Shown in pieces: positions 3 through 35,524 of a DNA stretch of 64,000 bases. Within the stretch, counting starts at the first letter, position 1. The number at the start of each line of letters is the position of its first letter. Source of the stretch: Corallococcus sp. AB038B (GTDB taxonomy: Bacteria; Myxococcota; Myxococcia; Myxococcales; Myxococcaceae); contig NZ_RAWO01000002.1 of assembly GCF_003668955.1 (NCBI RefSeq), forward strand, positions 343,605 through 407,604, read 5' to 3'. Position numbers and translations under genes: made by a program. Under the pieces are notes generated by a model. It did not search any database. It was given only the letters and a program-made list of their open reading frames with translations, and was not told the DNA's origin.

Positions 3-2402
3 CTGCAGCTGGGGCCCGGGGAGATTCGCGCCTACGACTCGCTCTTCACGGCCATCGTGGGCGCGCCGTTCGTGCTGGAGCCGGACGCGGAGCTGTCCGC
101 CTCTCCCGCGCTGTTCGCTCAGGGCGCGGCCCCGCCGTTCCTGGAGGTGGGGCCACTGCCGTATCGGACGCCGGGGACTCCGGAGATTCCTCCGGTGTTG
201 CTCACTGGCGGCCTGCCGCCCCCGGAGACCGTGGACCTGCGGCTGGTTCCGGATGCTGCCATCTCGCGGGCGGCCGTGCCGGTTCCGGGCGATGGTCCTC
301 GCGACCCGCCGCCATTCATTGGCGCGTGGGCTCCGGACGTCGTGCCGGGCTGTGACGTGAGGGATCCGCAGCCGCGCCCGTGGCTCGCGGCCCCGGAGCG
401 TCCGGCGCCTGGCGCGCTGGTGGACTACCAGGCTCGCGATGCGCAGTCGTTGCTGGCGGTGATGCTGGAGCGGGCTCGCACGGTGATGTCGCCGTGGGAG
501 GACCGGGGGCCCGCGGACTTCACGACCATGTTGCTGGAGGCCGTGGCCGCGCAGCTGGACTCGCTGGCGTACCAGCAGGAGCGCGCGGTGGTGGAGGGCT
601 TCCTGGAGGAGGCCCGGTTGCGGCGCTCCGTGGAGGACCACGCGCGCGGACTGGATTACGTGCCGGATCCGGGGCTCTCCGCCACGGTGATGCTGCGGTT
701 CCGATTGGATCCGGAGGCGCTCGCGGCGTTGGTGAAGGCGCGGCTGGAGGAACTGAACCTGTCGGTACTTCCGCCCGGCACCACCGCGCTGGAGTTCCTC
801 ACCGGTGGCGGCGTGCTGGAGATTCCCGCTGAAACGCTGGTGGCGAATGTCTCCACGGACGAGCACTCGCTGGTGTTCGTCACTGAGTCGCCCCTGTCGT
901 ACTTCCCCCGGCTGGAGATCGTGACGCTCGCGGAGTCCGTGCAGTTGGGGGACACGGGCGCCACGCTCGCGGGTCTGTACCCGGAGCTGGAGCCCGGCCG
1001 TTGGCTGATCCTCTACCGGGGCCGCGGCGAGAGCGGGCACGTGGTGCGAGTGACCTCCGTGGCGCTCGCCACCGATACGACCTTTGTCGGGTGGGATCCC
1101 CGCAGGTTCGCGCCGGAGGTGTTCCTGGCGCCGGGAGACCCCGCACCCGGGCCTCGCGCGACGGTTCTGGGCAACGTGATACCCGCGCATCACGGACTAC
1201 CGGTGACGCCGCTTCCAGAGGGCTTCGAGGCGGACTCGGCGGAGCCCTTCGCGCGCAGCCTCGCGCAGTGGCGCGCGTTGCTGTCCCCGGTCGTGGACGG
1301 CAGCGAGGAGCGCGAGTTCGCCCTGCCGTTCCATCCAGTCAGCGTCCAGGCCTCCGGGTATCCACTGCCGGAGGAGACGTCGCGGCGCGGGACGCCCCAG
1401 CTCCAGGTGAGCGTGGAGGATGACCCCTGGACACTGGTGGACGACCTGTCCGTCCAGGGGCCGGGGGATGAGGTGTTCGTGCTGCGTGCGACCCCCACGG
1501 GTGGTGCCAGCCTGCGCTGGGGCGACGGCGTCAACGGCGCCTTGCTTCCGCCCCGGGAGACGGCGCTGGGACTGTCGCTGCGCGTGGGGCTGGGGACGGT
1601 GGCCAACGTGGGGGAGGGCGTGCTCACGCGGTTGCTCCAGGTGCCGTTGGATCCGCAGCGCTCCGCGTCCGCGGGCGAGCTGCTGGCCCAATCGATGGAC
1701 GACTTGCGCGCGTTGGTGCGCGTGGACAATCCGCTGCCCGCGGTGGAGGGACGCGACGCGGAGTCGCTCGACTCCATTCGCTACCGTGCGCCGGCGGGCG
1801 TGTCGCAGCCGCTGTCCGCCGTCACGGTCGACGACTATGTGCGGATGCTCCAGCAGCTGCCGGAGGTTGCGGGAGCTTCGGCGCGCGCCGTGGACCGGGA
1901 CCTGCGCACGGTCATCCGCGTGACGGTGTTGCTGCGCGACGAGGACACGCTCGACCGCGACGAGCTGCTGCGCCGATGGGCGGGGGTGCGCAGTCGCCTG
2001 GAGGAAATACGCCTGCTGGGCGTGGACGTGGAAGCGCTGCCGCCCAAATGGGTGCCGCTCGACTTGGACCTGGAGGTGGATGCCGCGCCGTATGCGCAGG
2101 CCGACCAGGTGCGCGGCGCGGTGGTGGGCGCCATCGCGGGGGACGGCGGCCTGTTGGATCCGGACCGCTCTGGCCTGAACGGCGACGTGCAGCTCGCGGA
2201 CCTGTACCAGGCGGTGCTGCGCGTCCCGGGCGTGACGGCGGTGCGGGTGAAGCGCTTCCGCCGGCTGGAGCCTCAAGCGCAGGAGCGGCTGGAGGCGGGC
2301 GTCATTCCCATTGGACCCGACGAGGTGGCCACTGCTCGGGGTGGTTACTGGCCGGGGTCTGAAGGCGTCCTCACCGTGCAGGTGTGCGGAGGACTGCGAT
2401 GA
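3..2402 (+). CDS. Baseplate J-like protein (phage gp6/gpJ, eCIS Afp11/Pvc11-like); 5' end outside the window
   Basis: The reading frame is open back to base 3, so the gene is 5'-truncated. The motif ...DFTTMLLEAVAAQLDSLAYQQERAVVEGFLEEARLRRSVEDHARGLDY... matches the conserved baseplate-J signature. ORF length is right for the family. The stop overlaps the next start (ATGA at 2399-2402). Confidence 0.7.
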   Translation: MQLGPGEIRAYDSLFTAIVGAPFVLEPDAELSASPALFAQGAAPPFLEVGPLPYRTPGTPEIPPVLLTGGLPPPETVDLRLVPDAAISRAAVPVPGDGPRDPPPFIGAWAPDVVPGCDVRDPQPRPWLAAPERPAPGALVDYQARDAQSLLAVMLERARTVMSPWEDRGPADFTTMLLEAVAAQLDSLAYQQERAVVEGFLEEARLRRSVEDHARGLDYVPDPGLSATVMLRFRLDPEALAALVKARLEELNLSVLPPGTTALEFLTGGGVLEIPAETLVANVSTDEHSLVFVTESPLSYFPRLEIVTLAESVQLGDTGATLAGLYPELEPGRWLILYRGRGESGHVVRVTSVALATDTTFVGWDPRRFAPEVFLAPGDPAPGPRATVLGNVIPAHHGLPVTPLPEGFEADSAEPFARSLAQWRALLSPVVDGSEEREFALPFHPVSVQASGYPLPEETSRRGTPQLQVSVEDDPWTLVDDLSVQGPGDEVFVLRATPTGGASLRWGDGVNGALLPPRETALGLSLRVGLGTVANVGEGVLTRLLQVPLDPQRSASAGELLAQSMDDLRALVRVDNPLPAVEGRDAESLDSIRYRAPAGVSQPLSAVTVDDYVRMLQQLPEVAGASARAVDRDLRTVIRVTVLLRDEDTLDRDELLRRWAGVRSRLEEIRLLGVDVEALPPKWVPLDLDLEVDAAPYAQADQVRGAVVGAIAGDGGLLDPDRSGLNGDVQLADLYQAVLRVPGVTAVRVKRFRRLEPQAQERLEAGVIPIGPDEVATARGGYWPGSEGVLTVQVCGGLR

Positions 2403-4921
2403 GCCGCGTTCCCTCCACGCACCAGGCGCTGACGCATGAGCAGCTCCGCACCCGGCTGGGCGAGTCGGCGCGCATCGTCTTCACCCGGCTGGACGAAGCG
2501 CCCACGTGGAATCCGCTCGCGTACGCGGCGCCCTCCTCGGTGGACCTGGGGCGGGGGCTGCTGGACAGCGTGGCGCTCGCGCTGCACGTGCTGTGGACGT
2601 ATCAGCAGGCGTGGGCGGAGGAGAGCTTCCTCGCCACCGCGCGGCTGGAGGACTCCGTCTCCAAGCTGCTCGGGCACATTGGTTATCGGCCGAGCCCGGG
2701 CACCGCGGCGGTGGGGCTCCAGCACTTCCGCTGCAAGGCGAACGTGCGCGGCACGCTGTCGCCGGGAACGGCGGTGAATTCAGCGGCGGAGGGGGAAGAG
2801 ACCGCCGCTGTGTTCGAGACGCTCGCGGCGCTGCGCCTGCTTCCGGAGCTCAACGAGCTGCGCGCGTTCCTGCCTCCTCTGGTTGGAGTGGGGACAGGAG
2901 CTGGAACCGGGACGGGGACGGAGACAGGTGGGGGAACGGGAACAGGTGGAAGCACGGGGACGGGTGGTGGGACCGGTGCGCCTTCCGGCGAGGCGGGTGA
3001 GCCCGGGGCTCCGGCCCCCACGGGCGGCATCTTCGGGCCCGGCTCGGTGGTCGCGGGGCTTCAGGATCGCATCGAGGTGCAGCGCCACGGCCCGTTGGAG
3101 GAACGGCAGGTGGCTCGAGCGAAGCAGGATGCTCGCAAGCTGGCGTCGTTGATGAAGACGTTGGACCTGGGCGGGGATGCGGCGTGCAAGAGCACTCTGG
3201 ACGCGCTCTGCGAACAACTGTGCGAGGCCCAGAAGGTCGTGGCGCAGGCGGTGCCTCCGCCCGGCCGTCCCGTGGGCGCGTTGTCCGAGTCGCAGGAGAT
3301 CCTCGCCCGCCAGCTCCGCAACTTGCAGAAGCGGCAGGCGGACGCACTGGCCGCGTTGGAGGAGGCGCTGGCCCCGTGCGCGGACGAGGACCCGACCGTG
3401 CACGCGGTCCGGTTGGACAAGATGGTCACGTTCCTGGATGCCTTCGTGAACAGCCTCATCCAGGAGGCGCGGGATCAACTCGTCATCCTCAAGGGCAGTG
3501 AGGCGCTGAACCGGGCGGACCAGGCCTTCGGCGCGGAGGCGGGAGTGGCCCGGCCGTTGGGCGTGGCGGCATCCGGAACGGACACGCTCTACCTGCTGCC
3601 ACTGACGGATGCTTCCGGGCTCACCTCTCAGGATCCGCCGGTGCGGCCAGGAGACTGGTTCGTGCTGGCCGAGGACGTGGAGCGCCTGGGCCCCGGAGGA
3701 GCGAAGGGCACGGAGCGGATCTACCGCGAAGCGCTGCGAGTGCTGCGGGTCCGCACGGAGGTTCCGCCCGGTCAGCGAACGCCGATGACGCAGGTGACGT
3801 TCCAGCCACCGCTGTCGCGCGCGTACGCGTTGGACGGCGTGGTGCTGCTGGGAAACAACACGCTCGTCAGCGAGGGCTCCACGGTGGAGGAGGTCGCCGT
3901 GCCCGCGCTGGATCTGCGCACGGTGTCACTGCTGCACGGGCCGGTGACCTGGTTGCGCGACCCGAGCCGCGCGGGAGGCCGCCGGCCGGAGGTATCCCTG
4001 ACGGTGGGGGGACTCGCGTGGCATCCGGTGGATTCGTTGTTGGACGCGGCGCCGGATGAGCTGGCCTTCGCGGTGGAGTCGCTGCCGGCCGGGGCCGCGC
4101 GGCTGCGCTTCGGAGAAGGGGACCACGGTTCTGCGTTGCCCCTGGGCGCGGAGGTGCGGGTCCGCTACCGCGTGGGCAGAGGGACGGGAGGCAACCGGGC
4201 CGCGCTGCGGCTGCTGGCGATGGCGAGCCCGCATCCCTGCGTGGAGAAGACGTTCAACCCGCTGCCGCTGGCCGGAGGAACGGATCCGGAGGCACCGGAG
4301 TTGGCGCGCGTGCGAGGGCCCGCCACGGTGGGCGCGATGGACCGCGCCGTGTCGCTCTCGGACGTGCAGGCGCTGACGTTGGTGTTCGACGGCGTGCACC
4401 GCGCGAACGTGTTCCGGGATGGCGTGCGCCGCCGTTCGTTGAAGGTGGTGGTGGCCGGGCCGGAAGGAGCAGCCCTGGGCGCAGCCGATCTGGAAGCACT
4501 CCACGCGCATCTGGCGGCACGGGTTGCGCCGAAGGTGGAGCTGAACCTGATCAATCGGCAGCGCGTGGAAGTGCGGCTGCGGGTGCTGCTGCGCGTGGTG
4601 AAGGGCGCGGATCCGGTCGCGGTGCTTCAAGAGACGCGCCTGCGGCTGGGCGTGGACCGCGACCCGGATCGTGAGCCTGGTCTGCTGGATCCGGATCGCG
4701 TGGAGCTGGGACAGGATCTGCAGCTGTCGGACGTGTACGGCGCGCTCGCGGAGATCACGGGCCTGCGCTCGGTGGTGGTGCAGCGGCTGCATCGCGAAGG
4801 CACGCCGCCAGCCCTCTTCGAGCGCATCGTCACCGCGCCCGGCGAGCTGCTCGCGTGGGCCCCGCCGTCCGGAGAAAGCGATGGCGTCGCGCTCACCTAC
4901 GAGGAGGCCCAGGACCTATGA
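2399..4921 (+). CDS. Second baseplate J-like paralog (gp6-like wedge protein) with an internal Gly/Thr-rich low-complexity linker
   Basis: The motif LLDSVALALHVLWTYQQAWAEESFLATARLEDSVSKLLGHIGYRPSPGTAAVGLQHF resembles the baseplate-J family core. The gene is ATGA-coupled to the upstream gene. The 845-aa product contains GTGAGTGTGTETGGGTGTGGSTGTGGGTGAPSGEAGEPGAP. The track start at 2384 is also possible. Confidence 0.6.
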   Translation: MSRVPSTHQALTHEQLRTRLGESARIVFTRLDEAPTWNPLAYAAPSSVDLGRGLLDSVALALHVLWTYQQAWAEESFLATARLEDSVSKLLGHIGYRPSPGTAAVGLQHFRCKANVRGTLSPGTAVNSAAEGEETAAVFETLAALRLLPELNELRAFLPPLVGVGTGAGTGTGTETGGGTGTGGSTGTGGGTGAPSGEAGEPGAPAPTGGIFGPGSVVAGLQDRIEVQRHGPLEERQVARAKQDARKLASLMKTLDLGGDAACKSTLDALCEQLCEAQKVVAQAVPPPGRPVGALSESQEILARQLRNLQKRQADALAALEEALAPCADEDPTVHAVRLDKMVTFLDAFVNSLIQEARDQLVILKGSEALNRADQAFGAEAGVARPLGVAASGTDTLYLLPLTDASGLTSQDPPVRPGDWFVLAEDVERLGPGGAKGTERIYREALRVLRVRTEVPPGQRTPMTQVTFQPPLSRAYALDGVVLLGNNTLVSEGSTVEEVAVPALDLRTVSLLHGPVTWLRDPSRAGGRRPEVSLTVGGLAWHPVDSLLDAAPDELAFAVESLPAGAARLRFGEGDHGSALPLGAEVRVRYRVGRGTGGNRAALRLLAMASPHPCVEKTFNPLPLAGGTDPEAPELARVRGPATVGAMDRAVSLSDVQALTLVFDGVHRANVFRDGVRRRSLKVVVAGPEGAALGAADLEALHAHLAARVAPKVELNLINRQRVEVRLRVLLRVVKGADPVAVLQETRLRLGVDRDPDREPGLLDPDRVELGQDLQLSDVYGALAEITGLRSVVVQRLHREGTPPALFERIVTAPGELLAWAPPSGESDGVALTYEEAQDL
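2880..3010 (+). repeat. Coding (GGN-ACN)n microsatellite producing a Gly-Thr-rich linker inside the second baseplate-J paralog
   Basis: Direct reading of ggagtggggacaggagctggaaccgggacggggacggagacaggtgggggaacgggaacaggtggaagcacggggacgggtggtgggacc. Confidence 0.7.
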
Positions 4922-5014
4922 GCCCCGCCTCGACGCGCCCGACCGGCCCCCGCCCCACGTCTGCGGACATGGGGTCAGTCTCCGTGGCTGAGAAAGAGGG
5001 AACCCTGCGGGGAC

Positions 5015-5225
5015 TCCCGGCTGCGGCGCACCGCATGAACCTGTCCGACAGCCGGACAGGATTGAAGGACCCAGGTCGGGGACCTCAGCGCCCGCCGAGC
5101 TGCGGAAACCTGTCCGACAGTCGGACAGGTTTTGAGGACGCAGGCGGGGGACCTCTGCTCCTGCCGAGCTGCGGAAACCTGTCCGACAGTCGGACAGGTT
5201 GGGACCGTGTCGGGCGGAAGGTGCA
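5015..5225. repeat. Tandem array of three ~69-bp repeats, each centred on a CCTGTCCGACAG(T/C)CGGACAGG palindrome, in a 382-bp gap inside the baseplate operon
   Basis: The palindromes sit at about 5040-5060, 5106-5132 and 5175-5200, with a 69-bp period. Copies 2 and 3 extend to AAACCTGTCCGACAGTCGGACAGGTTT, a perfect 12-bp stem with a 3-nt loop. The flanks are also similar (gagctgcggaaa before, and g(a/g)ggac...gggacct after). No CDS in this gap has plausible codon usage. Confidence 0.8.
5106..5138 (+). terminator. Candidate intra-operon attenuator/terminator hairpin (palindrome copy 2 followed by TTTT)
   Basis: AAACCTGTCCGACAGTCGGACAGGTTTTGAGG has a 12-bp stem, a 3-nt loop and a short T run. 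It lies between the stop of gene 2 (4921) and the start of gene 3 (5304). Confidence 0.3.
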
Positions 5226-5303
5226 CGGCATTGATGTTCGGGCGCTTGGTGCGGCGCGTTACAGCGTGGCCGCGACGCTTCCGGTCGTGGAGGGGCAGGC
5301 CCC

Positions 5304-8300
5304 ATGAGCCCTCCTTCTCAGCGGCTGATCCAGCTCCTTCCGGGGCTCTACCCGGCGCGGGACTCCACGCTCGCGGATCAGCCGCTCCTCAAGCTGCTCG
5401 CCGTGCTGGGCATGGAGCTGGATGCGTTCGCGCGCGCAGTGGATCAACTCTGGGATGATCATTTCGTGGAGCGTGCAGGCCCGCAGGCGCTGCCGTTGCT
5501 CGCGGAGTTGATGGGCGCACGGCTGATCACCGACAACCCTCGCGTGCAGCGCGGAGTGGTGGCTCGCGCGGTGGCGTGGCGACGACGGAAGGGCACGCTC
5601 GCGTCGCTGGAGGAGGTGCTCTCCGTCACCAGCCTCTGGGACGCGGAAGTGGACGAGTCCTTCCGTTCGCTGCTGGAGACCCAGGACCTCAACGACCTGC
5701 TGCCCTGGCGCGGCCGCAGCGCGGTGATGTGGGATCCCATCGGCCTCGCGGATCCGCTCACCCGCCGCTCGCCTGGCATCGAGCGTCCCCGCGACGGTGT
5801 CCCGGAGCGTGGCCTCTTCATTGGCGTCGCGCCCGGCGAGACGCTGGACCAGGCTTTGCGCCGACTGGGGAGCGCGGACGCAGGCCGTGTTGCCGCGACT
5901 CCGCGCACGCTGGACCTGCTGGGCTGGGCACGTCCGGATGTCGCCCTCATCCGCACCGCGCGCCTGACGCCCGTGGAGTTGGAGGAAGTCACCCCGGCCA
6001 CCGTGCTCACGCTGCCCAACGGCTACCGGGGCTTTCGCGTGGATCCACTCGACCGCGATGCTCCCCTGGTGTGGCTCAAGCCCCTGGAGCGCGCGGACCT
6101 CACGGGAGGCCTCACCGCTCGCCATGAGCCCGCGCCTCCGTCGCTCGTCACGGGACGCACGGCGGCGATGCTGCTCACCCCTACCTCGCTGGCCGAGGAC
6201 GCCGACGCCGCTGAACGCGCGGATGCCATCACCGTCTCCGTCGACGGCATTCCGCTGGTGGGACCGGAAGCCCTGCCACTCCTGCGCGGGCCGCTGCCCA
6301 CCGCGCCCGTGGGGCCCTCGCCCACGCTGCGCTTCGCGGACCGGGGCAGGCCTTCGCCCGGAGACACATGGCGACTGACGCTGCTGGCCGCGCGTGAGAA
6401 CTCGGACACGGTGCTCCTGTCCACCGAGCTTGTGGCGGACGCACTGAATGCCGTCACCGTCACGCCGGAAGCGAACCAGCTCCTGGGTGGCACCACGGCG
6501 GCGTTGCTCGTTGAACGGGTGAGCGGTGATCCGCGCCTGCGCGACGCGGACGGCACGTGGCGCACCCTCACCGTGGGGCTTCGCCAGGGGCCTCCTCGCA
6601 GCAACGCCATCCGCGTGGATCTGGCCGGTGCGCCGTGGGTCGCTCGCATCGAGCAACACCTCGCGGATGGCAGCCTGCGCCTTGCCCGCTTCGACGCGAG
6701 CGCTGACGGCGCGCCCTGGCAGGTGACGGAGCTCATCGGCGCGTTGCCTCCAGACGGTCCAGGCATGTCCCTGGCCATTGCTGGTGACTCACTGTTGCTG
6801 GTGGCGCCGGACGGCACGGGGAAGCTGGGCGTGTGGTCGGTGACGGGCCTGGACACCGCGACTCCGACGGGGACGCGGTTGGACACCGCGAGCCCACGGC
6901 AGCCCTCGGCGCGACTGGCTCCCAGCCTGTGCGTGCGCGGCGGCCGGCTCTTCGTCTTCGGCGGTGACCTGGGCGGCGCGCCCACTGGAGACCTCTGGTC
7001 GCTGCCGGTCACGGGCGGACCGTGGCGGCCCCATGCAGTGCGCAACCGCCAGGAGCGCAAGGCCGCGACGCTGCTGAGCACGGCGCAAGGACTGATGCTC
7101 GTGGGCGGCGAGGCCGTGACGGGAGAACTGGCCGTGCCGGTGATGCTCTGTGACCCGGCCTCCGCGAGCCCTGTCTGGCGCCCCCTGGCCCCACTGCCCA
7201 TCACCGCGAACCTGCCAGGCACGCTCGTGGCAACCACCACCGCCGACGGCGTGGAGGCGCTCGTCTGGGCGGACACGACGCGTCCTCAACGGATGACGCT
7301 GAAGGCAGGCGAGGATGCCTGGGTCGCCGGACTGCTGGAGGCCTCGGGCACGAACCCGCCGGTTCCGGGCGAAGCGCTCTACGTCGATGGGCGCGTGCTC
7401 CTCACGGATCCGGCGCCGCTGCCCGCGTCGGAGATCGTCTTCTCACTGGGCGGTCGCGGCTACCTGGCCTTCCTGCCAGAGCTGGCCCTGCTCCCGGATG
7501 AACTCCTGCGCTTCAACGTCGCCAACGACGGCGCCGCGTTCATCGAACCTCGCGAGGGCCAGCCGCTCCCGCTCGATTCCCGGCCCGGCGGTGCGTACCA
7601 CTCGAGGGATGCTTCCGTGGCCGGCGGTGCGCGGCGCTATTCGGTGCCCGGACGGCTGAGTCGCCACCCGTTCCAGCTGCGCCAGCGAAGCCTGGGCCCG
7701 TGGACGAAGCTCGCTCCGAGCATCGCCTCCGGCATCGTCGCGGTGGATCCACGCCTGGGCCGCGTCGTGATCCAGGACGACGCACCCGTGGGCCGTGTCA
7801 CCGTCTCCGCGCGGGTAGGGCGGGGCGCCTCATTGGGAGCGGGGCTGCTTCCTCCGGACCGCCGTCCGCCCGCCGCGTGGGCGGAGCCGGACTTCCCGTT
7901 CATCGATCCGCCGGACCGTCCTGGCGACCGCTCCGGCACCGGCCTTCCTGTCACCGCGTGGATCTCCCCGGAGCGCGCGGGCGGAGTGCTGGCGGCCGGA
8001 GGCCAGGAGCGGCCCATCGTCGCCACCGTCGCGGATGGACTCCAAGCCGGAGCACCTCCGGTGCTGGGCCTCATCGGTTCGCCGCGTCTTGCTCCGGAGC
8101 GTCTGTCACAGGGCCTGGACAACGGGCTGTCCCTCTTCGCCGCGGACACGGGCGCGGCGCCATGCATCGGCGCGGACGAGCACGGCCTCTCGCTGGCGCT
8201 CTACCCGGGCTTCGGAGGCAGCGCGGCCACGCGCGTGTGGCTCGCGGGCTTGTGGCTCGCGGGGCGGCTGGACCTGGTGCTCGCTCGGGGGCAGGCGGAT

Positions 8301-8945
8301 CTGCGCTGGTGCAACCTGGGCGCGCCCGGACAGGTGGGCGTGTGGATGCCGGGCGGTGGGCACCAGGACATCAGCGCGCGGCGTTCGCTGCCTCCCGCCG
8401 ACGTGGAGCTGCGCCTCTACGGCTGCATGGTGGGCGTCATCGAGCTGCCGCCCTGGGTGCACCTCATCGCCGCGGGCTGCACCTTCGACGCCGGAGACCG
8501 CGACGCCGTCGCCATCCGAGCGGCGGGCGCGACCGTGCGACTGCGGCACTGCACGGTGCTCGGGGCCACGGAAGCGGGTGTGCTGGAGGCTTCCTCCTGC
8601 GCCTTCGCGGGCGAGGTGCGCACGGACCGGCCGGACCTGGGCTGGCTGCGCTACAGCCTCTTCGCGCGCGGCGGACAGCCTCCGGTGTCGCACCAGTCGC
8701 GGGTGCACACCGTGTCCTTCCAGTCGAACCGCCAGACGGACCCGGGCTACCTCGTCCTGGGCGACAACAACGGCCCCGAAGCGCTCCACGCCTCCGAGCG
8801 CGGCGGAGTCCCCGGTGCCCACGACGAGCGCTCTGACCACGAGCGCGAACTCTCCGCGCGCACCGACGACAGCATGCCCATTGGCATCACGCCCTTCCAC
8901 GCCGACCGCAGCCAGGACGACCTCGTTCGGATGAGCCGACCATGA
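5304..8945 (+). CDS. Phage P2 gpI-like baseplate wedge protein (tail protein I family; eCIS Pvc12/Afp12-like) with a C-terminal Kelch-type beta-propeller extension
   Basis: The N-terminus LIQLLPGLYP...LLKLLAVLGMELDAFARAVDQLWDDHF...ALPLLAELMGAR...RRRKGTLASLEEVL matches the Tail_P2_I signature (LLP..., LW, LPxLA, KGT). Repeated Kelch-like blades are present (GGRLFVFGGDLGGAPTGDLWSL..., LMLVGGEAVTGEL...). The stop overlaps the next start (ATGA at 8942). Confidence 0.65.
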   Translation: MSPPSQRLIQLLPGLYPARDSTLADQPLLKLLAVLGMELDAFARAVDQLWDDHFVERAGPQALPLLAELMGARLITDNPRVQRGVVARAVAWRRRKGTLASLEEVLSVTSLWDAEVDESFRSLLETQDLNDLLPWRGRSAVMWDPIGLADPLTRRSPGIERPRDGVPERGLFIGVAPGETLDQALRRLGSADAGRVAATPRTLDLLGWARPDVALIRTARLTPVELEEVTPATVLTLPNGYRGFRVDPLDRDAPLVWLKPLERADLTGGLTARHEPAPPSLVTGRTAAMLLTPTSLAEDADAAERADAITVSVDGIPLVGPEALPLLRGPLPTAPVGPSPTLRFADRGRPSPGDTWRLTLLAARENSDTVLLSTELVADALNAVTVTPEANQLLGGTTAALLVERVSGDPRLRDADGTWRTLTVGLRQGPPRSNAIRVDLAGAPWVARIEQHLADGSLRLARFDASADGAPWQVTELIGALPPDGPGMSLAIAGDSLLLVAPDGTGKLGVWSVTGLDTATPTGTRLDTASPRQPSARLAPSLCVRGGRLFVFGGDLGGAPTGDLWSLPVTGGPWRPHAVRNRQERKAATLLSTAQGLMLVGGEAVTGELAVPVMLCDPASASPVWRPLAPLPITANLPGTLVATTTADGVEALVWADTTRPQRMTLKAGEDAWVAGLLEASGTNPPVPGEALYVDGRVLLTDPAPLPASEIVFSLGGRGYLAFLPELALLPDELLRFNVANDGAAFIEPREGQPLPLDSRPGGAYHSRDASVAGGARRYSVPGRLSRHPFQLRQRSLGPWTKLAPSIASGIVAVDPRLGRVVIQDDAPVGRVTVSARVGRGASLGAGLLPPDRRPPAAWAEPDFPFIDPPDRPGDRSGTGLPVTAWISPERAGGVLAAGGQERPIVATVADGLQAGAPPVLGLIGSPRLAPERLSQGLDNGLSLFAADTGAAPCIGADEHGLSLALYPGFGGSAATRVWLAGLWLAGRLDLVLARGQADLRWCNLGAPGQVGVWMPGGGHQDISARRSLPPADVELRLYGCMVGVIELPPWVHLIAAGCTFDAGDRDAVAIRAAGATVRLRHCTVLGATEAGVLEASSCAFAGEVRTDRPDLGWLRYSLFARGGQPPVSHQSRVHTVSFQSNRQTDPGYLVLGDNNGPEALHASERGGVPGAHDERSDHERELSARTDDSMPIGITPFHADRSQDDLVRMSRP

Positions 8946-27451: not shown

Positions 27452-30400
27452 TCATGGAGGAGGCCAGCGGGGCGGCAAGAGATCGATGACGCGGCGGCCG
27501 AAGCTCTCCGCGTCCGTTTCAATGGGCTGCCGGAAGTACCTTGGGTCTCCCGGCCCGTAGTAGTGGCCGCCGGAGCCAGGCAGGTTGCGCCACCACCGGC
27601 GCGAGAACGGATGCGACTGTCGGCCAATCGAATACTGGTAGGCCTGATACGCCTGATAGTAGTGCCGCGACTCGTGGACGGCGGTGCCCACCGCGTCGCC
27701 CACGTCCAGGTTCTCGTTGATGACGATGACGCCACGCCGGCTTACGGGCGCGAGCCGGCCCTGGTGCGTGACGTTGAAGTCCCATTCCATCCATCCGTAG
27801 TCCCCAGCCGGCAGGTTCTGGAATTCGACCCGTGGACGACGCGACTGGGGGACGCCCATGGCATCCATTGCCGCACCCACTGACTTCTTGAGGGCCTGCT
27901 GCCGGTCCCGGAGCGACAGCGTGCCGAACGTCGAGGGGTCCAGCTCCGGGATGTCCTCCAGCCCCGCTTGCAGGTCGCGCATCTGCGCCAGCTCGAAGGG
28001 CTTGAACCGGCGGCTGCTCCAGCTGCGGGAGACGGTGACGTCGAAGTCCCCCCAGCCCAGCACGTTGCCGGTGGGACCTATCGTGCGAATGCGCTTCGCG
28101 GTCTCGAACGGTTCGATGATCCGGGCGATCTCTCCCGGCTTCACGTTCGGGTCCAGGCTGTGGATGAGCCCCTTCAGCTGTTTGGGATCGATGTTGTACT
28201 GGGCCAGCAGGCCTGGCTTGCGCTTCGTGCCCTTGAGCGCCGACTCCACCTTCTTCAGCACCTTCAGCGTGGCCCCGACGCGGCCCTTCTTCAGCTCATC
28301 CCTGAAGACAACCATCAGGGCATCGAGCTCCGCGCGGGGGGCCGAACCGTGGGGCATGACCTCCCGGACCAGCGACATCTTGCGCCACGCGTCCGCGATG
28401 CGTTCGACGCGGTCGACGAGCTCCCAGCCCGGCGGAGGCATGGGGGTAATGGGCCCCACGCGCAGCTCGATGGAGATCCGCCACTCGTCGATGGCCTTGG
28501 TCAGCGCCTCCAGGTGCGCCGGCCCCAGGCCTCTCGCCCGGGTCCAGGCCAGGTCCGACAGCTGCGCTTGCAGGTCGTCCAGGTTCTTGCGGAGGTTCTC
28601 CCCCACCGCCGTGAAGTCCTTGAGCCTGGGGGCGTGCTTGCCGCCCTTCACCTCGACCAGGTGGAGCTTCGCGCTCGTCGGATCCGCGGCGTGGTCGAAC
28701 TCGACGATGATTTCATCGATGCCGCTGCCTTGCTCCGCGCCCCTGGGCTTGAAGTCCAGCCGCCGGAATCGCTCCGTCGGCCCCATCCGTTCGCCGAGCA
28801 GCGCCTCCGTGAACGCCCGGGACTTCTGCTTCTCCACCACCTCGCCCGCCTCGGTGGTGCCGTAGCCGCGCGGCTGCCAGCGGTTGCGGGAGCGCTTGGA
28901 CAGGATGAGCTCGATGTATTCCTTCTCACCGCTGGCGCGAGTCACCTCCACCAGCTTGTAGTAACGGAGCTCCTTGGGGCGGTACATGACCTCCTGCCAC
29001 GCGGGGCCGATCTGCGCCACCGTGTCCGCCGGATCCAGCTCCAGCGTGGTGCGCCCACGCTGGAGGTCGTCGAACACCTGGCGCGGTGCGCTCTTGATGT
29101 ACGGATCATCCAGCTCCGGCCCCCCCTTCGAGAACGGCCCCACCTCCGGGTGGTCGCCGTGGAGCACGGTGTTGGGCCACACGTTGTTGGGCCTGCCTGG
29201 CTCCCGGATGACGGGCTTGGTGTCCGTCACGGTGAGCACCGGGGCCGTCTTCTTCCCACCTCCGCGCGTCTTGACCGCCGGCGGCTTCGTCTCCGGAACG
29301 ACCACCTCCGGTGGCTTCGCCGTGGGAAGCTCCATCTCCAGCTGTTTTGGCGTCGGAACCTCCGGCGCTGACGGCTTCGCCGGGGTGAATTCCAGCTCCA
29401 GCTGTCTGGCCCCCTCCGCCTCCGGTGAAGGGACGGGCGGTTCCTTCTTGCTGAACAGCCGTGGAGGCTCATTCAGGTACTGCGGCTTCGAGCGCACGCC
29501 CTGGCCGAACTCCGCCATGTCGAGGGGTGTGAACGCATCCACCTCCTTCATCCGCTGGCGCAGGTTCTCCAGCGTCTTCTTTCCCTGCCGGATGCGGCGG
29601 GTCGCCTCCTCCGGGTCCATGGACACGCCGCGCTTGCCCTCCAGCGACGTGAGCAGCGACTCCTGCGCGTCGATCTCCAGGAGCAGCTTCTTGCGATAGA
29701 GCTCGAACTGCTTCTCGATGGGCAGCTTGTCCCAGTGCCGCAGCGCCCGTTCGTCCAGGGCCTTGATCAGGTCGCGCGTCGCCTTGTCGTGGCGCTGGAG
29801 CAGGTGCAGGCCCTCCTCGCCCAGGTCGGACAGGTCCGCGCCCGCCTTGACGATGATGGTGGGCTTGCCGCGCCGGAACATCGCGACGGCCTGGGCGGAC
29901 TTGCTGCCGGTGAGGGCTTCGAAGTCCGCCTCGGAGATCAGCTCGATGGGCGTGTTCGCGAACGCCTTTCGCTGCGCGGGCGGGATGTGCTCCAGCAGCT
30001 CCTTGCGCATCGCGCGCTGGAGCTGCTGCCGGTCGAAGTCGCCGGACATCTGCTTGAGCAGGCCCTCGTCGAACTCGCGCAGGAACTCCTTCATGTTCCC
30101 GGCGGGGTTCTCCGCCTTCCACTTCTTGAAGAGGGTCAGCCGCTCCTTGGGCGTGCCCCGGAAGTGGAGCAGGTCCTGGGTGCGCGGCGGGACATGGGGC
30201 TTGGAGATGCCGCCCAGCGCGCCGAAGGCCCCGGCCATCACCGCGCCCGGCGCCGCCTGCATCACGGTGCCGGCCAGCACGTTGAAGAGCGCGTTGCCGC
30301 CCTTGTAGTTCTCGTCGTTGAGGACGTTGCCCAGGAACGCGGAGGGCGCGGACTGCACCAGGCCTTCGGCGCCCTGGGCCAGGCCGTGCGCCGCCACGCG

Positions 30401-33400
30401 GGCCATCACCCCGCCTTCCTCCGCCATGCGCGCCAGGAACCCCAGCTTGAGCAGCTTCGTGCCCATGCCAGCGGTGGCCGCGGCGGTGAGGGCGTCCACG
30501 GCGCCCACGCCCGCGTCGACGGCCGCCTCCTCCCAACCGTAGGCGCTGCCCTTCATGGCGGCCTTGGTCAGCATCGTCACCGCGGCCGTCGCCACCGCCA
30601 TGCCCACCAGCACCGGCGTGCTGGCCATGAACGCGCCGAACGCGGCCCAGAACCCCGCGCCCGCGGGCGGAGCGAAGATGCTGACGATGACGCCGATGAT
30701 GATCACCACCGCCATCACCACCGCGGTGAGGACCATCACCAGCCGGTCGGTGATGAAGTCCACCTGCTCGCGGTGCATCTGCACCGACTCGTCGGCGTAA
30801 TCACCCTGGCGCTGCACGCGATCGGACTTCTTCTCCCAGTCGTCCTGCCACTGGCGCAGCCCGTCGGCGGTGTAGTTCTTGTCCCCGGGCTTGGGGCGCA
30901 TCCGCTCGTGCAGCTCCAGCGCGCTCACCTCGGCGTCGAGCGCGGACGCCTGGTCCAGCACCAGCTGGTACTCCGACGACGCCAGGCTGTTGGTGGAGCG
31001 CGCCTCGAAGTGCACCCGGCGCCAGGCCCGGTCCGCCTTCTCGCGGGGCGTGACGGGCTCGCCGTAGTCCACCATGTCCAGGACGTCGAACTCATCGCGT
31101 CCGCCCAGCTCCTCGTCGATGCGCGCGCGGAAGCGCTCGAAGGGCGTGCGCGTGTCGCCAGGGTCGGCGGGGTGGTCCTTGGCCCACTCCTCGGCCATGG
31201 CCTGGATCTCCGCCTTCGTCTTCCCGGCGAAGACCTCCTTGAGCGCGTCCTCGTCCGTGCCCACGCCCTGCACGGCGTACTGAACGATTTCCGCGTCGGT
31301 GAGGTAGCCCTTCTCCAAGAGCGACGCGACGGCGTCCCGGTCCGCGCCGGACGTGTCCATCAGGACGGCCTGCTCGAAGCTCGCCTGGAGGTGCGTGCCC
31401 TCCACGTAGGCGCTGTCGTACTCGGCCGCCAGCGCCTTCATGTTCGCCATGGCGTCGGCCTGGGCCTGGGCCTTCGCCTTGCCGTCCACCTCCTTGCGTT
31501 CCTTCGCGATGCGGGCCTGGACCTTCTCCGGGCTCCACTTGTCCAGGAACTCCACTTCACTGATGCGGCCCTTGCGGCGGTCCTCCTCCGTGAGCGGGCC
31601 TTCGCTGGCGGGCTTGACCTTCGCCTCGTCCAGCGTGCGCTCGATGTCCATTCGCTCCTGGACGTCCAGGTAGCCGTCACGGCGCGCGTCGGCGATCTGC
31701 CGCTTGCCCTGCGCGGACATGGCGTCGCGGATGACCTTGTCGTCCGCGTAGAAGACGCTGGTGTGCTCGATGCGGATGCGCGCGGCATCCACCTGGAGTC
31801 CCTTGTCGTCGCGCAGGCCCTCGATGAGCTTGAGGTCCTCGCCCTTCATCTCGTCGTGGAACGCGGCGCTGAGCGCGCTCTCACCCGTGGTGCGCTCGGT
31901 CCACTCCGGGCCGTATTGCTTCTCATACGACGCGTCGATGGCCTGGTTGCGCTTGAGCAGCTCCGCGCGGAACGTCTTGGTGTCCCAGCCGTACTGCTGC
32001 GCGTCCGCCTCCGTCTCCTTGCGGATGCGGTCGTAGACGCCCTCCATGGCCTTGCGGTCGGTGCCCAGGCCGAAGAACCACCCGCCGCGCATGGCGCGGT
32101 CCATCTCGATGGCGCGCGCGTCCTCGGTGCGGCCCTCCACCAGGGCGTGCATCTCGTCCACGTCGTGTGTCTTGAGCGCGCCGCTGCGCAGCTCGTCGTC
32201 CATCTGGACGACCAGGTCCTTGCCGTACTTCTGCTGGTAGGCCTTCTTGATGGCTTCGATCTGCTCCGGCGTCTTGCCGCGAAGCAGGGTGAGGATGGCG
32301 GCCTCGTCCGTGCCCCAGCCCAAGCCGAAGAAGGTGCCCTCCATGGCGTCGTTCAGCTCGACAGCGGCGGCCTTGGAGGCGTTGCCGGAGAGCAGCGCTT
32401 CCGCCTTGTCCCAGTCGTGCGTGGTGGTGCTGAAGAAGTCGTCCAGCTCGCTCTTGAGCCGCTCGCGCAGGTTCTCGTTGTGCTCCTGCTGGTAGAGGAG
32501 CTCGATGTAGTGGCCCTGGAGCGGGTTGAGGTTGGCGAGCGCGTCGAAGATCTTCTTCTCGTCCGTGCCCCACTGGTCCACGCCCTCCCAGACCTTGAGG
32601 GAGATGTTGCGAGCGCGGTTGCTGAAGAGGGGCTCCTGCTGGTCGACGACGATCTTGAGCCGCTCCAGGTCTGTGGACGCGAGCAGCTCCTTCTCCAGGG
32701 CCTCCATGAGCGGCTTGCGGCGCTGGCCGATGATGCGCACGGCCAGTCCCTCCGCGAGCGCCTGCACCGCGTCCTTGCCACCCTTGCCGTAGTAGGAGAG
32801 CAGGATGGCCTTCTGCTCCTCGCTGAGGGCGTTGTTCCCCTTGATGGTCTCCGCGTCCAGCTCCTCGCCCTGGCGCAGGCGCACCTCCGCGAGGAACAGC
32901 ATGTTCTGGTCCAGCGACGTCTTGTTCTCCGCCGCGCGAGCGGTCTCCCACGCGCGGCTCTCGTCGTGGGCGGCCGCCAGCCAGTCGATGATCCACCCGA
33001 GCAGCCGGTCCCAGAAGCCGCGCTCGTAGCCGATCTGCTTCGCGTGCCAATCGCGGATGACCTCCCGGGCCTCCTTGCCCGCGTCGCGCAGCTCCTGCTG
33101 ATAGCGCTCCACGCTCTGGTCGATGTCGCGCTTCGCCTTCGAGACGACGGCGCCAATCTCCTTGCGGCGGTCGTCCAACCACTTCTTGGTGGGGCGGTAC
33201 GCCTCCGTGGCGGTCTTGAGCTTCACCGGATCATCGCCGGCGTCCTTCTTGAGCTCCCACTCGTCCTGGAGCGCGGCGAGCTCGTAGGCGTGCATCTGGT
33301 CGCTCGCGGCCTTCGCGAAGGCTTCCTTGAAGCGCTTGCCGTTCTGGTCGTACCGGACGACCCAGTTGCTCACCTTGGTGTCCACGGCCGCGATGAGCGC

Positions 33401-35524
33401 GTCGCGTTTGCGCCGGGCCTCGGTCAGGTCGACGCCGCCCTTGATGGCGGCGGCCTTCGCCTCGGACTGCGCGTCGAGCGAGGCGCGCATGCGCGACAGG
33501 GAATCAGCGAACGACTTGCCGCCCTCCTCCAGGCTCTTCTTCGCGTCCTCGTGCGCCTTGCTGAGCGTGCCGGTGGTGGCGGCGTGCGAGTCCACCAGTT
33601 GCTTGCGGCGGGCCTCCACCTTCGCGTCCAGGTCCTCCTTCTTGATCTGCGCGGCGTCCGCGACGCGCTGGAGCTCCGCGGCGAAGATGGGACGTTCCGC
33701 GGTGATGAGAGCAACGCCCCAGGACGCATCCAGACCGCCCGGGACATAGGCTTCGCGGGCCTTCTGGACGGAGGCGTCCGCGTACTTGTCCGGAGCGACG
33801 AGCAGCCGCGCCAGCACGTCGCCAATGTCCACGCGAGCGAAGTCGGGGACGTTGATGGGCGCGGGGGCGGCCTGTTCGAGGACGGTGATGCCCTTCGCGG
33901 GTTCCTTGGGCTGGACCTTCGCCTTCTTCTGCTTGTCTGCCTCGGCGGTGATCTTCTTCTGGAGGCGCGTCCAGTCCTTGAGCTTCTCCGGGTCGGTGGG
34001 CTTGGGGCCGCCGGGCTTGTAGACGAGGTCGCCGAGCGGGCCCTTGATGAGCATGTGCCCGCCGTCGTCGCGCACGAGCTGCGCGCCAATCTCCGGCACA
34101 TGGCCCAGCGGGCTCTTCCGCAGGTCGGGGAGTTTGGCCTCCTTGACGTCCAGCTTCCGTTCGCACTTCGCATCCACCAGCGAGGAGGCCTTGCCGGTGG
34201 GATCGTCCGGGATGGCCGGAAGGTCCTTCGGCTGCTTCGCCGGGGTGATGGCCTTCTTGCCTTCGTCCTCCAGTTGCTTGAGGCGCGCGGCGCGGACCGC
34301 GTTGGGGTCCACGGCGGCCTGGGTGATCTTGAACGTGTAGCGGGGCGCGGGAGGAAGCTGGGGCTCCGGGACCTGCGCCGTGGTGCTGGAGATGCGGCCC
34401 TTCCATGCGGTGACCGGATCCGCGTCCGCGCCCACCGCTGGCGCAGCGGGGATGGGCCCCGCCGTGACAGGTGCCGCCTGCGCAGGAGGCGGCGCGGGAA
34501 GGCTGGCAGGGGGCTCCACCGCCGCGACGGCACCCGTCGGATCCGGAGCGGTTTCGAGACCGTGCTTGATGCCTTGGGCGCCCTGCGCATGGGCCTCGGC
34601 CAGCTGCTTCTGCCACTCCATCGCGGCCGGAGGCACGGGCACCCTGGGGCCCGTGTCGACCGTGGCCTCCGTCTGGATGGAAGGAGGCTCCTGGGGTCCA
34701 GCGCCAGGGGAGGCCTGACGGACGACGATGTGGACATCGCTCTGGCTCGACAGCGCGGACACCAGCGTGTCGATGCGCGCGGCGTCGTCCATGCCGCCGG
34801 GAGCGGTCCCCGTGGGAATGGAAGCGGGCGCGGGAGCTTGCTCATGCGTTGCCAGCTCGCCGCCCGCGCTGGGCGCATCGACGGTGGTGGCTGTAATGGA
34901 TTCGGGCGCGGGAGAAGTGCTGCCCCCGAGTCCCGCCGCTTCCGACTCCGCGGTGCTCGTGGTGGGTTCGAGGTCTGAAGCACGGGCCTCGGCGAGCCGC
35001 GCGGCGGTGTCTCCGAGTTGCTCAGCGGAGCCCAGAGGCAGGACGGCCATGCGTGCCGCATCACGCCGTCGAGCATCCTCCTCTTGCTGCTCGAGGGTCG
35101 CGGGCTGGGACGCGCCAGCCGCCTGCGCGAGCCCGGTGTTCGGTTGTGGCGCGAGCCCATGGATGCCCAGCTCCGCCTCGACGGCGCCGGGCGTGGAGAG
35201 CAGCGCGACCTCCGGCGGGTGGACCGGGTACGGCTCGAAAAGATGCGAGCGCGGACCGCCCAGTGTCCGCCACGCCGGGTCGCTCCACCGGCGCTCCAGA
35301 TCGCGAGCGGCATCACGAAGCACGGGCCCGTGAAGGGCAGGGGCCGAGCCTTTAAGTGACGCGAGCCGCGCCGCCAGCTCACGCGCGGGATTGGACGAGG
35401 AAGGGCCCCGGGGAACGACACCCGGAGCACGAGGAAGGGCCGCGGAGGACGAGGGAGTGCGCCCGGAGTTCTTCCGGAGCATGGCCTTGGCGGAGGCCTT
35501 CGGGCCCTGGTCACGGATGCGCAC
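27452..35524 (-). CDS. Giant (2690 aa) multidomain protein: disordered Pro/Ala-rich N-terminus, coiled coils, at least four annexin repeats, a hydrophobic transmembrane block, and a C-terminal HExxH (HESRH) zincin-like motif; candidate CIS cargo/toxin
   Basis: Annexin-type endonexin motifs GWGTDEKKIFDALANL, GLGWGTDEAAILTLLRGKTPEQIEAIKKAYQQKYGKDL, GLGTDRKAMEGVYDRIRKE and GVGTDEDALKEVFAGKTKAEIQAMAEEW lie at aa ~980-1460. A TM-like block ITDRLVMVLTAVVMAVVIIIGVIVSIF...GMAVATAAVTMLT lies at aa ~1590-1660. AVHESRHYYQ sits about 74 aa from the C-terminus. Strong GC3 coding bias along the whole ORF. Confidence 0.7.
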   Translation of the reverse strand: MRIRDQGPKASAKAMLRKNSGRTPSSSAALPRAPGVVPRGPSSSNPARELAARLASLKGSAPALHGPVLRDAARDLERRWSDPAWRTLGGPRSHLFEPYPVHPPEVALLSTPGAVEAELGIHGLAPQPNTGLAQAAGASQPATLEQQEEDARRRDAARMAVLPLGSAEQLGDTAARLAEARASDLEPTTSTAESEAAGLGGSTSPAPESITATTVDAPSAGGELATHEQAPAPASIPTGTAPGGMDDAARIDTLVSALSSQSDVHIVVRQASPGAGPQEPPSIQTEATVDTGPRVPVPPAAMEWQKQLAEAHAQGAQGIKHGLETAPDPTGAVAAVEPPASLPAPPPAQAAPVTAGPIPAAPAVGADADPVTAWKGRISSTTAQVPEPQLPPAPRYTFKITQAAVDPNAVRAARLKQLEDEGKKAITPAKQPKDLPAIPDDPTGKASSLVDAKCERKLDVKEAKLPDLRKSPLGHVPEIGAQLVRDDGGHMLIKGPLGDLVYKPGGPKPTDPEKLKDWTRLQKKITAEADKQKKAKVQPKEPAKGITVLEQAAPAPINVPDFARVDIGDVLARLLVAPDKYADASVQKAREAYVPGGLDASWGVALITAERPIFAAELQRVADAAQIKKEDLDAKVEARRKQLVDSHAATTGTLSKAHEDAKKSLEEGGKSFADSLSRMRASLDAQSEAKAAAIKGGVDLTEARRKRDALIAAVDTKVSNWVVRYDQNGKRFKEAFAKAASDQMHAYELAALQDEWELKKDAGDDPVKLKTATEAYRPTKKWLDDRRKEIGAVVSKAKRDIDQSVERYQQELRDAGKEAREVIRDWHAKQIGYERGFWDRLLGWIIDWLAAAHDESRAWETARAAENKTSLDQNMLFLAEVRLRQGEELDAETIKGNNALSEEQKAILLSYYGKGGKDAVQALAEGLAVRIIGQRRKPLMEALEKELLASTDLERLKIVVDQQEPLFSNRARNISLKVWEGVDQWGTDEKKIFDALANLNPLQGHYIELLYQQEHNENLRERLKSELDDFFSTTTHDWDKAEALLSGNASKAAAVELNDAMEGTFFGLGWGTDEAAILTLLRGKTPEQIEAIKKAYQQKYGKDLVVQMDDELRSGALKTHDVDEMHALVEGRTEDARAIEMDRAMRGGWFFGLGTDRKAMEGVYDRIRKETEADAQQYGWDTKTFRAELLKRNQAIDASYEKQYGPEWTERTTGESALSAAFHDEMKGEDLKLIEGLRDDKGLQVDAARIRIEHTSVFYADDKVIRDAMSAQGKRQIADARRDGYLDVQERMDIERTLDEAKVKPASEGPLTEEDRRKGRISEVEFLDKWSPEKVQARIAKERKEVDGKAKAQAQADAMANMKALAAEYDSAYVEGTHLQASFEQAVLMDTSGADRDAVASLLEKGYLTDAEIVQYAVQGVGTDEDALKEVFAGKTKAEIQAMAEEWAKDHPADPGDTRTPFERFRARIDEELGGRDEFDVLDMVDYGEPVTPREKADRAWRRVHFEARSTNSLASSEYQLVLDQASALDAEVSALELHERMRPKPGDKNYTADGLRQWQDDWEKKSDRVQRQGDYADESVQMHREQVDFITDRLVMVLTAVVMAVVIIIGVIVSIFAPPAGAGFWAAFGAFMASTPVLVGMAVATAAVTMLTKAAMKGSAYGWEEAAVDAGVGAVDALTAAATAGMGTKLLKLGFLARMAEEGGVMARVAAHGLAQGAEGLVQSAPSAFLGNVLNDENYKGGNALFNVLAGTVMQAAPGAVMAGAFGALGGISKPHVPPRTQDLLHFRGTPKERLTLFKKWKAENPAGNMKEFLREFDEGLLKQMSGDFDRQQLQRAMRKELLEHIPPAQRKAFANTPIELISEADFEALTGSKSAQAVAMFRRGKPTIIVKAGADLSDLGEEGLHLLQRHDKATRDLIKALDERALRHWDKLPIEKQFELYRKKLLLEIDAQESLLTSLEGKRGVSMDPEEATRRIRQGKKTLENLRQRMKEVDAFTPLDMAEFGQGVRSKPQYLNEPPRLFSKKEPPVPSPEAEGARQLELEFTPAKPSAPEVPTPKQLEMELPTAKPPEVVVPETKPPAVKTRGGGKKTAPVLTVTDTKPVIREPGRPNNVWPNTVLHGDHPEVGPFSKGGPELDDPYIKSAPRQVFDDLQRGRTTLELDPADTVAQIGPAWQEVMYRPKELRYYKLVEVTRASGEKEYIELILSKRSRNRWQPRGYGTTEAGEVVEKQKSRAFTEALLGERMGPTERFRRLDFKPRGAEQGSGIDEIIVEFDHAADPTSAKLHLVEVKGGKHAPRLKDFTAVGENLRKNLDDLQAQLSDLAWTRARGLGPAHLEALTKAIDEWRISIELRVGPITPMPPPGWELVDRVERIADAWRKMSLVREVMPHGSAPRAELDALMVVFRDELKKGRVGATLKVLKKVESALKGTKRKPGLLAQYNIDPKQLKGLIHSLDPNVKPGEIARIIEPFETAKRIRTIGPTGNVLGWGDFDVTVSRSWSSRRFKPFELAQMRDLQAGLEDIPELDPSTFGTLSLRDRQQALKKSVGAAMDAMGVPQSRRPRVEFQNLPAGDYGWMEWDFNVTHQGRLAPVSRRGVIVINENLDVGDAVGTAVHESRHYYQAYQAYQYSIGRQSHPFSRRWWRNLPGSGGHYYGPGDPRYFRQPIETDAESFGRRVIDLLPPRWPPP

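Follow-up and report, generated by a model that had tools for sequence, protein, structure and literature searches.

A Kelch beta-propeller inserted in the probable gpI/Tri2-type wedge protein of a Tail_P2_I/DUF6519-type injection locus in Corallococcus

Baseplate wedge proteins of contractile injection systems (CIS) determine how fibres are mounted and how contact with a target is converted into sheath contraction. In Corallococcus sp. AB038B, a gene at positions 5304–8945 of a 64,000-nucleotide stretch of contig NZ_RAWO01000002.1 (the window, which starts inside an injection-system cluster) encodes a protein that combines a phage-tail domain with Kelch repeats, which raises the question of what a beta-propeller does in such a component. 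The component type is known, and the Kelch-inserted form is real and undescribed. At about even confidence, the protein is read here as the single gpI/Tri2/TssG-type wedge subunit of a CIS of the Tail_P2_I/DUF6519 ('eBAP5') type, a type recognised only recently, in which the propeller and a beta-helix brace or dock a giant fibre. The gene is laid out as follows:

5304–8945, + strand: whole gene, a 1213-aa gpI/Tri2-type wedge protein with an inserted Kelch propeller and a C-terminal beta-helix (open reading frame, translation, homologues)
5304–5663, + strand: helical Tail_P2_I (gpI/Tri2/TssG-like) domain, residues 1–120 (Pfam, model)
5664–6209, + strand: conserved stretch, residues 121–302 (conservation; still aligned to the Kelch-less class of relatives)
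6210–7694, + strand: lineage-specific insertion of ~495 aa, residues 303–797 (HHalign, hmmsearch)
6294–6635, + strand: beta-sandwich domain in the insertion, residues 331–444 (AlphaFold2 (AF2) model, Foldseek)
6636–7553, + strand: six-bladed Kelch beta-propeller, residues 445–750 (GGRLFVFGG...W blade at 6933–7004)
7695–7973, + strand: neck with a conserved DPRLGRV motif, residues 798–890 (shared with Kelch-less relatives)
7974–8723, + strand: right-handed parallel beta-helix (pectin-lyase-like fold), residues 891–1140 (shared with Kelch-less relatives)
8724–8945, + strand: conserved C-terminal tail with helices (PGY...PGAH...REL motif), residues 1141–1213 (aligned to the relatives P0061 and P0066)

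The open reading frame (ORF) starts with ATG and runs over 1213 codons plus a stop, exactly reproducing the coordinates and length given in the original prediction, which had been made from the sequence alone. Its GC content is 0.84 at third codon positions (GC3) and 0.57 at second positions; in surrounding DNA of ~70% GC, such a GC3 is typical of coding sequence, and the ORF thus has a coding signature. The ATG is backed by homologues starting at the same residue, and in several species the end of the upstream gene is the start of this one. Full-length homologues with 37–95% identity were found in 39 species, the closest of them (92–95%) in Corallococcus.

At the N-terminus, the Pfam family Tail_P2_I (PF09684) scored 30.6 bits over residues 26–118 (E 3.6e-7; gathering cut-off 20.6), with a match that spans positions 6–96 of the 139 in the profile, and many homologues carry precomputed matches to the same family. 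The N-terminus accordingly hits a gpI-family profile above cut-off, as had been predicted, though the match covers about 120 residues and not the first ~180. In the AF2 model of residues 1–470, which is a weaker one (pLDDT 69), a helical domain occupies residues 1–119, and the weak-scoring structural neighbours of the model were consistently wedge or triplex proteins. These comprised phiCD508 gp66 ('Triplex 2') and wedge proteins of Bas63, A-1(L), Milano and XM1, as well as the pyocin R2 protein Tri2 (PA0619) and Cis12-like chains.

Residues 119–211 are predicted to be disordered in the monomer model, with pLDDT values below 50 at 119–172 and 189–211. Yet residues 181–210 form the most conserved block of the whole protein (top-residue frequency 0.80), and such a combination of conservation and disorder in the monomer is typical of an interface that folds on binding. 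Residues 121–302 are a candidate interface with wedge partners or with the fibre anchor.

With the target protein alone, no Pfam Kelch model reached its cut-off (27.2 vs 50 bits for Kelch_KLHDC2_KLHL20_DRC7 and 15 vs 25.3 bits for Kelch_6), and a PDB search with it as a single sequence returned one marginal Kelch match only. A family profile of 41 members matched solved Kelch proteins in the PDB at E-values of 2.4e-15 to 1e-5 over residues ~460–690, led by the Kelch region of the dynein heavy chain alpha (2.4e-15), LZTR1 (7.2e-12) and KLHDC10 (3.2e-10). Repeating this profile search with alignment A3, which still contained full-length homologues, added nothing. In the structure model, ~25 beta-strands at residues 443–750 fit six four-stranded blades in a closed six-bladed Kelch fold; the blade motif quoted in the original prediction, VRGGRLFVFGGDLGGAPTGDLWSL, lies at residues 544–567. 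Both the family-profile matches, which lie well outside what chance would give, and the model thus bear out the expectation that the repeats fold as a propeller. The preceding beta-sandwich (~331–444) has strands with pLDDT values of ~85–93 in the AF2 model and gave weak Foldseek matches, Ig/C2-like in kind.

The extension had been described as C-terminal. It is a genuine Kelch propeller, but an internal insertion (~303–797) rather than an addition to the C-terminus. When residues 1–150 were searched with HMMER against 1.84 billion representatives, 2078 relatives were found at E <=1e-3, of which the closest ~30 are 1186–1415 aa long, followed by a far more numerous class of ~650–770 aa. An HHalign comparison of the Kelch class with this mid-size class was collinear over residues 1–1200 (probability 100%, E 2.5e-55, 642 columns), with a single ~495-aa gap in the mid-size class at target residues ~303–797. 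Similarly, a family-profile hmmsearch matched all 18 long proteins scored (P0061–P0206) from end to end, while 76 of 89 mid-size proteins matched the N-domain and positions ~805–1210 without the Kelch region; BLASTP gave the same N- and C-terminal-only pattern for Streptomyces P0066 (725 aa) and for P0061 (850 aa). A PDB search with P0066 returned no match. Collinear Kelch-less relatives separated by one gap imply that the ancestral protein was already long, with a gpI-like N-domain, linker, neck, beta-helix and C-terminal tail, from which it would follow that the Kelch lineage gained the beta-sandwich and the propeller in mid-protein. Other architectures with a gpI-like N-domain also occur, such as P0204 (3433 aa) and P0181 (727 aa), the latter with the domain at residues 411–552 and not at the N-terminus.

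The last ~420 residues, made up of the neck, the right-handed beta-helix and the helical tail, are common to the Kelch-less relatives and were absent from the original prediction. D815, P816, R817 and R820 are invariant in the neck, and residues ~891–1140 match solved beta-helix proteins in structure.

The genes around the target that bear on its assignment are the following:

3–2402, + strand: J1, Baseplate_J-like wedge protein, truncated at the start of the window (Pfam Baseplate_J 24.2 vs 21.1 bits; 1255 aa in C. coralloides)
2384–4921, + strand: J2, second J-like wedge paralogue, 845 aa (J1 similarity, Cis11, PHROG)
8942–16549, + strand: giant protein with DUF6519 (eBAP5-type anchor) and beta-helix, 2535 aa, presumed fibre (Pfam DUF6519 36.5 bits; Beta_helix)
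17128–18315, + strand: gp5-like needle/spike, 395 aa, in the conserved cassette (Pfam Phage_base_V 84.6 bits; Gp5_trimer_C; PHROG baseplate hub; synteny)
35556–37997, − strand: AAA+ ATPase, 813 aa, which probably serves the locus as assembly ATPase of the Afp15/Pvc15 type (Pfam AAA, E 1e-24)

J2 is 29% identical to J1 over 335 aa (E 3e-13) and matches both the Cis11 chain 9gtp_1K of S. coelicolor (E 9.7e-8) and a PHROG baseplate wedge subunit (E 8e-15). The start of the DUF6519 gene overlaps the stop of the target, and in the ATPase gene Pvc16_N is matched weakly (19.6 vs 27 bits). The window and all related loci have the order gp25–J1–J2–target–DUF6519, which places the target where a gpI/Tri2/TssG-type gene is expected. 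In C. coralloides DSM 2259 (L001), CIS_tube, a 92-aa and a 395-aa protein, GPW_gp25, the 1255-aa J-like protein and an 837-aa protein precede the target, and a 2537-aa DUF6519/Beta_helix protein, proteins of 113 and 69 aa, a 395-aa Phage_base_V/gp5 protein and proteins of 64 and 536 aa follow it. Markers of extracellular CIS (eCIS) are clustered, with CIS_tube, GPW_gp25 and Phage_GPD in this locus and in L004 and L006, and Baseplate_J, Phage_base_V, DUF6519 and AAA inside the window.

In eCIS fibres, DUF6519 has been described as the baseplate-anchor domain eBAP5, and Tail_P2_I proteins as proposed TssG-like adaptors with loop-mediated attachment and pyocin-like fibre mounting (Nat Commun 2026, PMC12923769). 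Given this equation of DUF6519 with eBAP5, a Tail_P2_I domain beside a DUF6519 gene makes the target the Tail_P2_I adaptor of an eBAP5-type system. It shares with the adaptors of eBAP3/eBAP5-type eCIS (PMC12923769) the Tail_P2_I N-domain and a gene position between the Baseplate_J genes and the DUF6519 fibre gene, and no Afp12 homologue was detected. The ~700-aa relatives from Streptomyces and metagenomic loci have the N- and C-terminal modules in common with it. In contrast to the eBAP3/eBAP5 adaptors, it adds ~495 aa of beta-sandwich and six-bladed Kelch propeller, it is always paired with a DUF6519 protein of ~2500 aa, and the gp5-like needle gene has moved downstream of the fibre.

Cis12 of S. 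coelicolor and R2 pyocin Tri2 (PA0619)/P2 gpI, which are likewise encoded after J-like genes, include the best structural neighbours of the N-domain. The S. coelicolor CIS wedge consists of two Cis11 and one Cis12, like that of pyocin R2 (PMC12237407), and by analogy the target would be present once in each 2:1 wedge triplex, with the two J positions probably occupied by different paralogues, J1 and J2. In contrast, these proteins or their modelled chains span ~150–180 residues as against 1213 aa, and no sequence-level match to them was obtained from the target in PDB searches.

Afp12/Pvc12 resemble the target as large peripheral wedge proteins thought to attach a fibre, encoded at an analogous operon position. 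Homology was not detected, as no Afp or PVC chain was among the PDB sequences that the family profile matched with E-values of up to 10; the solved AFP/PVC baseplates are assumed to be in this PDB set. In the literature covered, no Kelch domain is reported for Afp/PVC wedge proteins, and the earlier remark that the fusion is unlike these proteins is technically correct. It refers, however, to the wrong baseplate type, as baseplates of the Afp/PVC type are entirely without Tail_P2_I genes (PMC12923769). The propellers of KLHDC2, KLHDC3, LZTR1 and bacterial YjhT are only 14–16% identical to that of the target, and Kelch domains of this type are attached to BTB, BACK or enzymatic domains, whereas the one described here is inserted within a phage-tail-like structural protein.

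A Kelch domain in a Tail_P2_I adaptor is mentioned neither in the main text of PMC12923769 nor in the part of its supplement that was covered. In the literature text read on Kelch, contractile injection and baseplates, 'Kelch' appeared only as the reference-list author B. A. Kelch. Beyond PMC12923769, the literature searched held no mention of DUF6519, and Tail_P2_I was linked to eCIS only in work of the same group. Searches of the PDB and of the literature turned up no structure of a Tail_P2_I/DUF6519-type system.

The distribution of the Kelch-bearing form was assessed in one genome per species for 185,579 species, which yielded 39 loci, with matches of full length wherever the contig permits. 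The hosts belong to the Myxococcota (Corallococcus, Haliangiales, Kofleriaceae, Byssovorax, Polyangiaceae, Minicystis, Archangium), the Actinobacteria (Micromonospora, Cellulomonas, Acidimicrobiales), the Alphaproteobacteria (Mesorhizobium, Rhodospirillaceae), the Planctomycetes (Gemmataceae) and the Chloroflexi (Anaerolineae). Directly downstream of every Kelch-gpI gene with an available flank, starting within a few to ~45 nt, lies a homologue of the giant DUF6519 gene, and where flanks exist the cassette of J1, J2, Kelch-gpI, giant DUF6519 protein, ~69-aa gene and gp5-like needle is kept across the five phyla, the needle lying about 8 kb further on. The giant proteins of Kelch-type loci are 2450–2705 aa long, as against 474, 537 and 1118 aa for the DUF6519 proteins of three Kelch-less loci with the same gene order. 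An apparent lack of the giant fibre in Micromonospora locus L043 was a tblastn false negative, as a full-length homologue with 38.6% identity was found there by direct BLASTP and phmmer; a second Micromonospora locus (L035) has a long ORF and a partial match only at this position.

Identity among the giant proteins is 40–63% over the first ~1300 residues and 19–35% over residues ~1300–2500, with indels near the end. The propeller is 32–42% identical across phyla, like the other domains of the wedge protein, with almost no indels, and its invariant residues are the structural GG/W positions of Kelch blades. With the propeller conserved and the distal half of the fibre variable, it is the fibre rather than the propeller that holds the variable part resembling a receptor-binding domain (RBD). 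As a separate observation, the giant protein can be aligned end to end over five phyla and its extreme C-terminus is conserved, which is unusually conservative for a presumed tail fibre.

In the docking and bracing reading proposed above, the helical N-domain and residues 121–302 would assemble with J1 and J2 into a wedge triplex of the 2:1 type known from pyocin R2 and from the S. coelicolor CIS. The same two segments would also grip the DUF6519 fibre anchor by loops, in the way that TssK is held by TssG. Insertion and beta-helix would project at the wedge periphery, where their main part would be to dock or brace the conserved proximal ~1300 residues of the giant fibre, while target recognition would be left to its variable distal half. 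Such a role is favoured by the co-inheritance of the giant DUF6519 protein and by a propeller conservation that is moderate and untypical of an RBD. Several observations weigh against it. The NCBIfam model TIGR02242 (phage tail protein domain) scored below its cut-off in the target (20.6 vs 51.85 bits, E 3.6e-4), and a PHROGs search with the protein gave no match. Sheath genes were not seen in the window or in the 10-kb flanks of related loci, and lie beyond both. Moreover, co-inheritance of the Kelch-type cassette could simply reflect its horizontal transfer as a unit, Kelch as a distal domain of a DUF6519 fibre gives a precedent for a binding role in such systems, and the evidence from which docking may be inferred consists solely of co-occurrence and conservation.

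It is possible, if doubtful, that the propeller is a receptor-binding module on the wedge, lectin-like or protein-binding, which would serve as a second, short-range site aiding firing in the manner of short tail fibres. The eCIS catalogue holds one DUF6519 fibre gene with Kelch repeats, there as a distal domain, according to the parts of PMC12923769 covered, and a peripheral wedge position would be compatible with surface exposure. The conservation of the propeller, however, is that of core domains, with few indels over five phyla and a far more variable distal fibre, and no binding-site signature was identified beside its structural residues. It is somewhat unlikely that the wedge propeller is a conserved sensor, binding a widespread surface ligand (e.g. 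a glycan) right at the baseplate and coupling this binding to firing. If so, a rare lineage spread over five phyla would possess a two-tier recognition, by giant fibre and wedge lectin, unlike the structurally described CIS.

The insertion could also be a passive enlargement of an unusually large baseplate, i.e. a spacer, cage or stabiliser without a specific partner, comparable to the extra domains of T4 gp7 and the Cis11 cage, but this is considered unlikely. In favour are the enlargement of all baseplate proteins in the lineage (1227–1502 aa for J1, about 2500 aa for the fibre), a uniform, moderate level of conservation, and the Cis11 cage extension of AlgoCIS as a parallel (PMC12237407). 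On the other hand, a complete and conserved six-bladed propeller is an expensive spacer, and the giant DUF6519 protein accompanies it so strictly that a specific relationship is suggested.

Highly improbable is a role of the beta-helix as a polysaccharide-degrading enzyme (pectate/alginate-lyase or esterase-like), with the Kelch domain helping to bind the substrate and the wedge digesting capsule or matrix on contact. Identity to lyase and esterase enzymes is only 5–14%, Pfam shows no lyase, esterase or Beta_helix match in the target, and no catalytic residues were identified; beta-helices are also widely used as purely structural elements, and this one is older than the Kelch insertion. Finally, the chance that the long ORF is an artefact, either two genes fused by a sequencing or frameshift error or one of the many long spurious ORFs that high-GC DNA yields, is practically nil, as its GC3 is of coding type, the single-chain model is confident, and collinear full-length homologues of 1186–1415 aa, found across five phyla in dozens of independent assemblies, refute it.

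The Kelch-type wedge protein does not overturn the current understanding of these systems. What has been defined is a horizontally spread Kelch-type cassette, present in predatory myxobacteria and actinomycetes, which could reveal how an adaptor grows to bear a very large fibre, or how a second recognition site is added. Either outcome would be useful for the re-targeting of engineered injection systems.

The lineage has its spike split in two genes, as seen in comparison with loci L003 and L007: the hub (Phage_GPD) lies upstream of gp25, and the Phage_base_V/gp5-like needle is encoded separately. A reading as two spikes was dropped, as Phage_GPD and Phage_base_V stand side by side in the Kelch-less loci, which indicates a split hub plus needle. 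The needle gene of Kelch-type loci is enlarged (395–406 aa) and has moved 3' of the giant fibre, behind small conserved genes of ~110 and ~69 aa. Further downstream in the window, two conserved genes without Pfam assignment encode 536 aa (18483–20093, +) and 720 aa (20090–22252, +), and homologues of the former come after the needle gene in several related loci.

A 2690-aa protein encoded beside the AAA+ ATPase gene (27452–35524, −) carries Annexin repeats (E 1.9e-20), which are unusual in bacteria, and has a weak DUF6782 metallopeptidase-like C-terminus; it is a candidate toxin or cargo of the injection system. This minus-strand ATPase/annexin operon ends with a 504-aa protein that has HEAT repeats and an FGE-sulfatase-like domain (24615–26129, −). 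Beyond ~38 kb, the window holds ordinary housekeeping genes.

Between J2 and the target, a mechanically called ORF of 150 aa (4855–5307) was rejected as a gene, having no coding GC3 bias and being made up of palindromic repeats. The J2–target gap itself (4922–5303) is without coding bias and holds three copies of a near-perfect palindrome of 25–26 nt, spaced exactly 69 nt apart (5038–5063, 5106–5132 and 5175–5200), of the form AACCTGTCCGAC-A-GTCGGACAGGTT. The length of the gap varies among Corallococcus species (about 230–815 bp), and others lack it, with J2 directly adjoining the target. A fourth copy lies at 24482–24506, between convergent operons, the number of copies expected by chance being zero, and the palindromic element looks like an insertion of the REP/MITE kind (repetitive extragenic palindrome/miniature inverted-repeat transposable element) within the operon.

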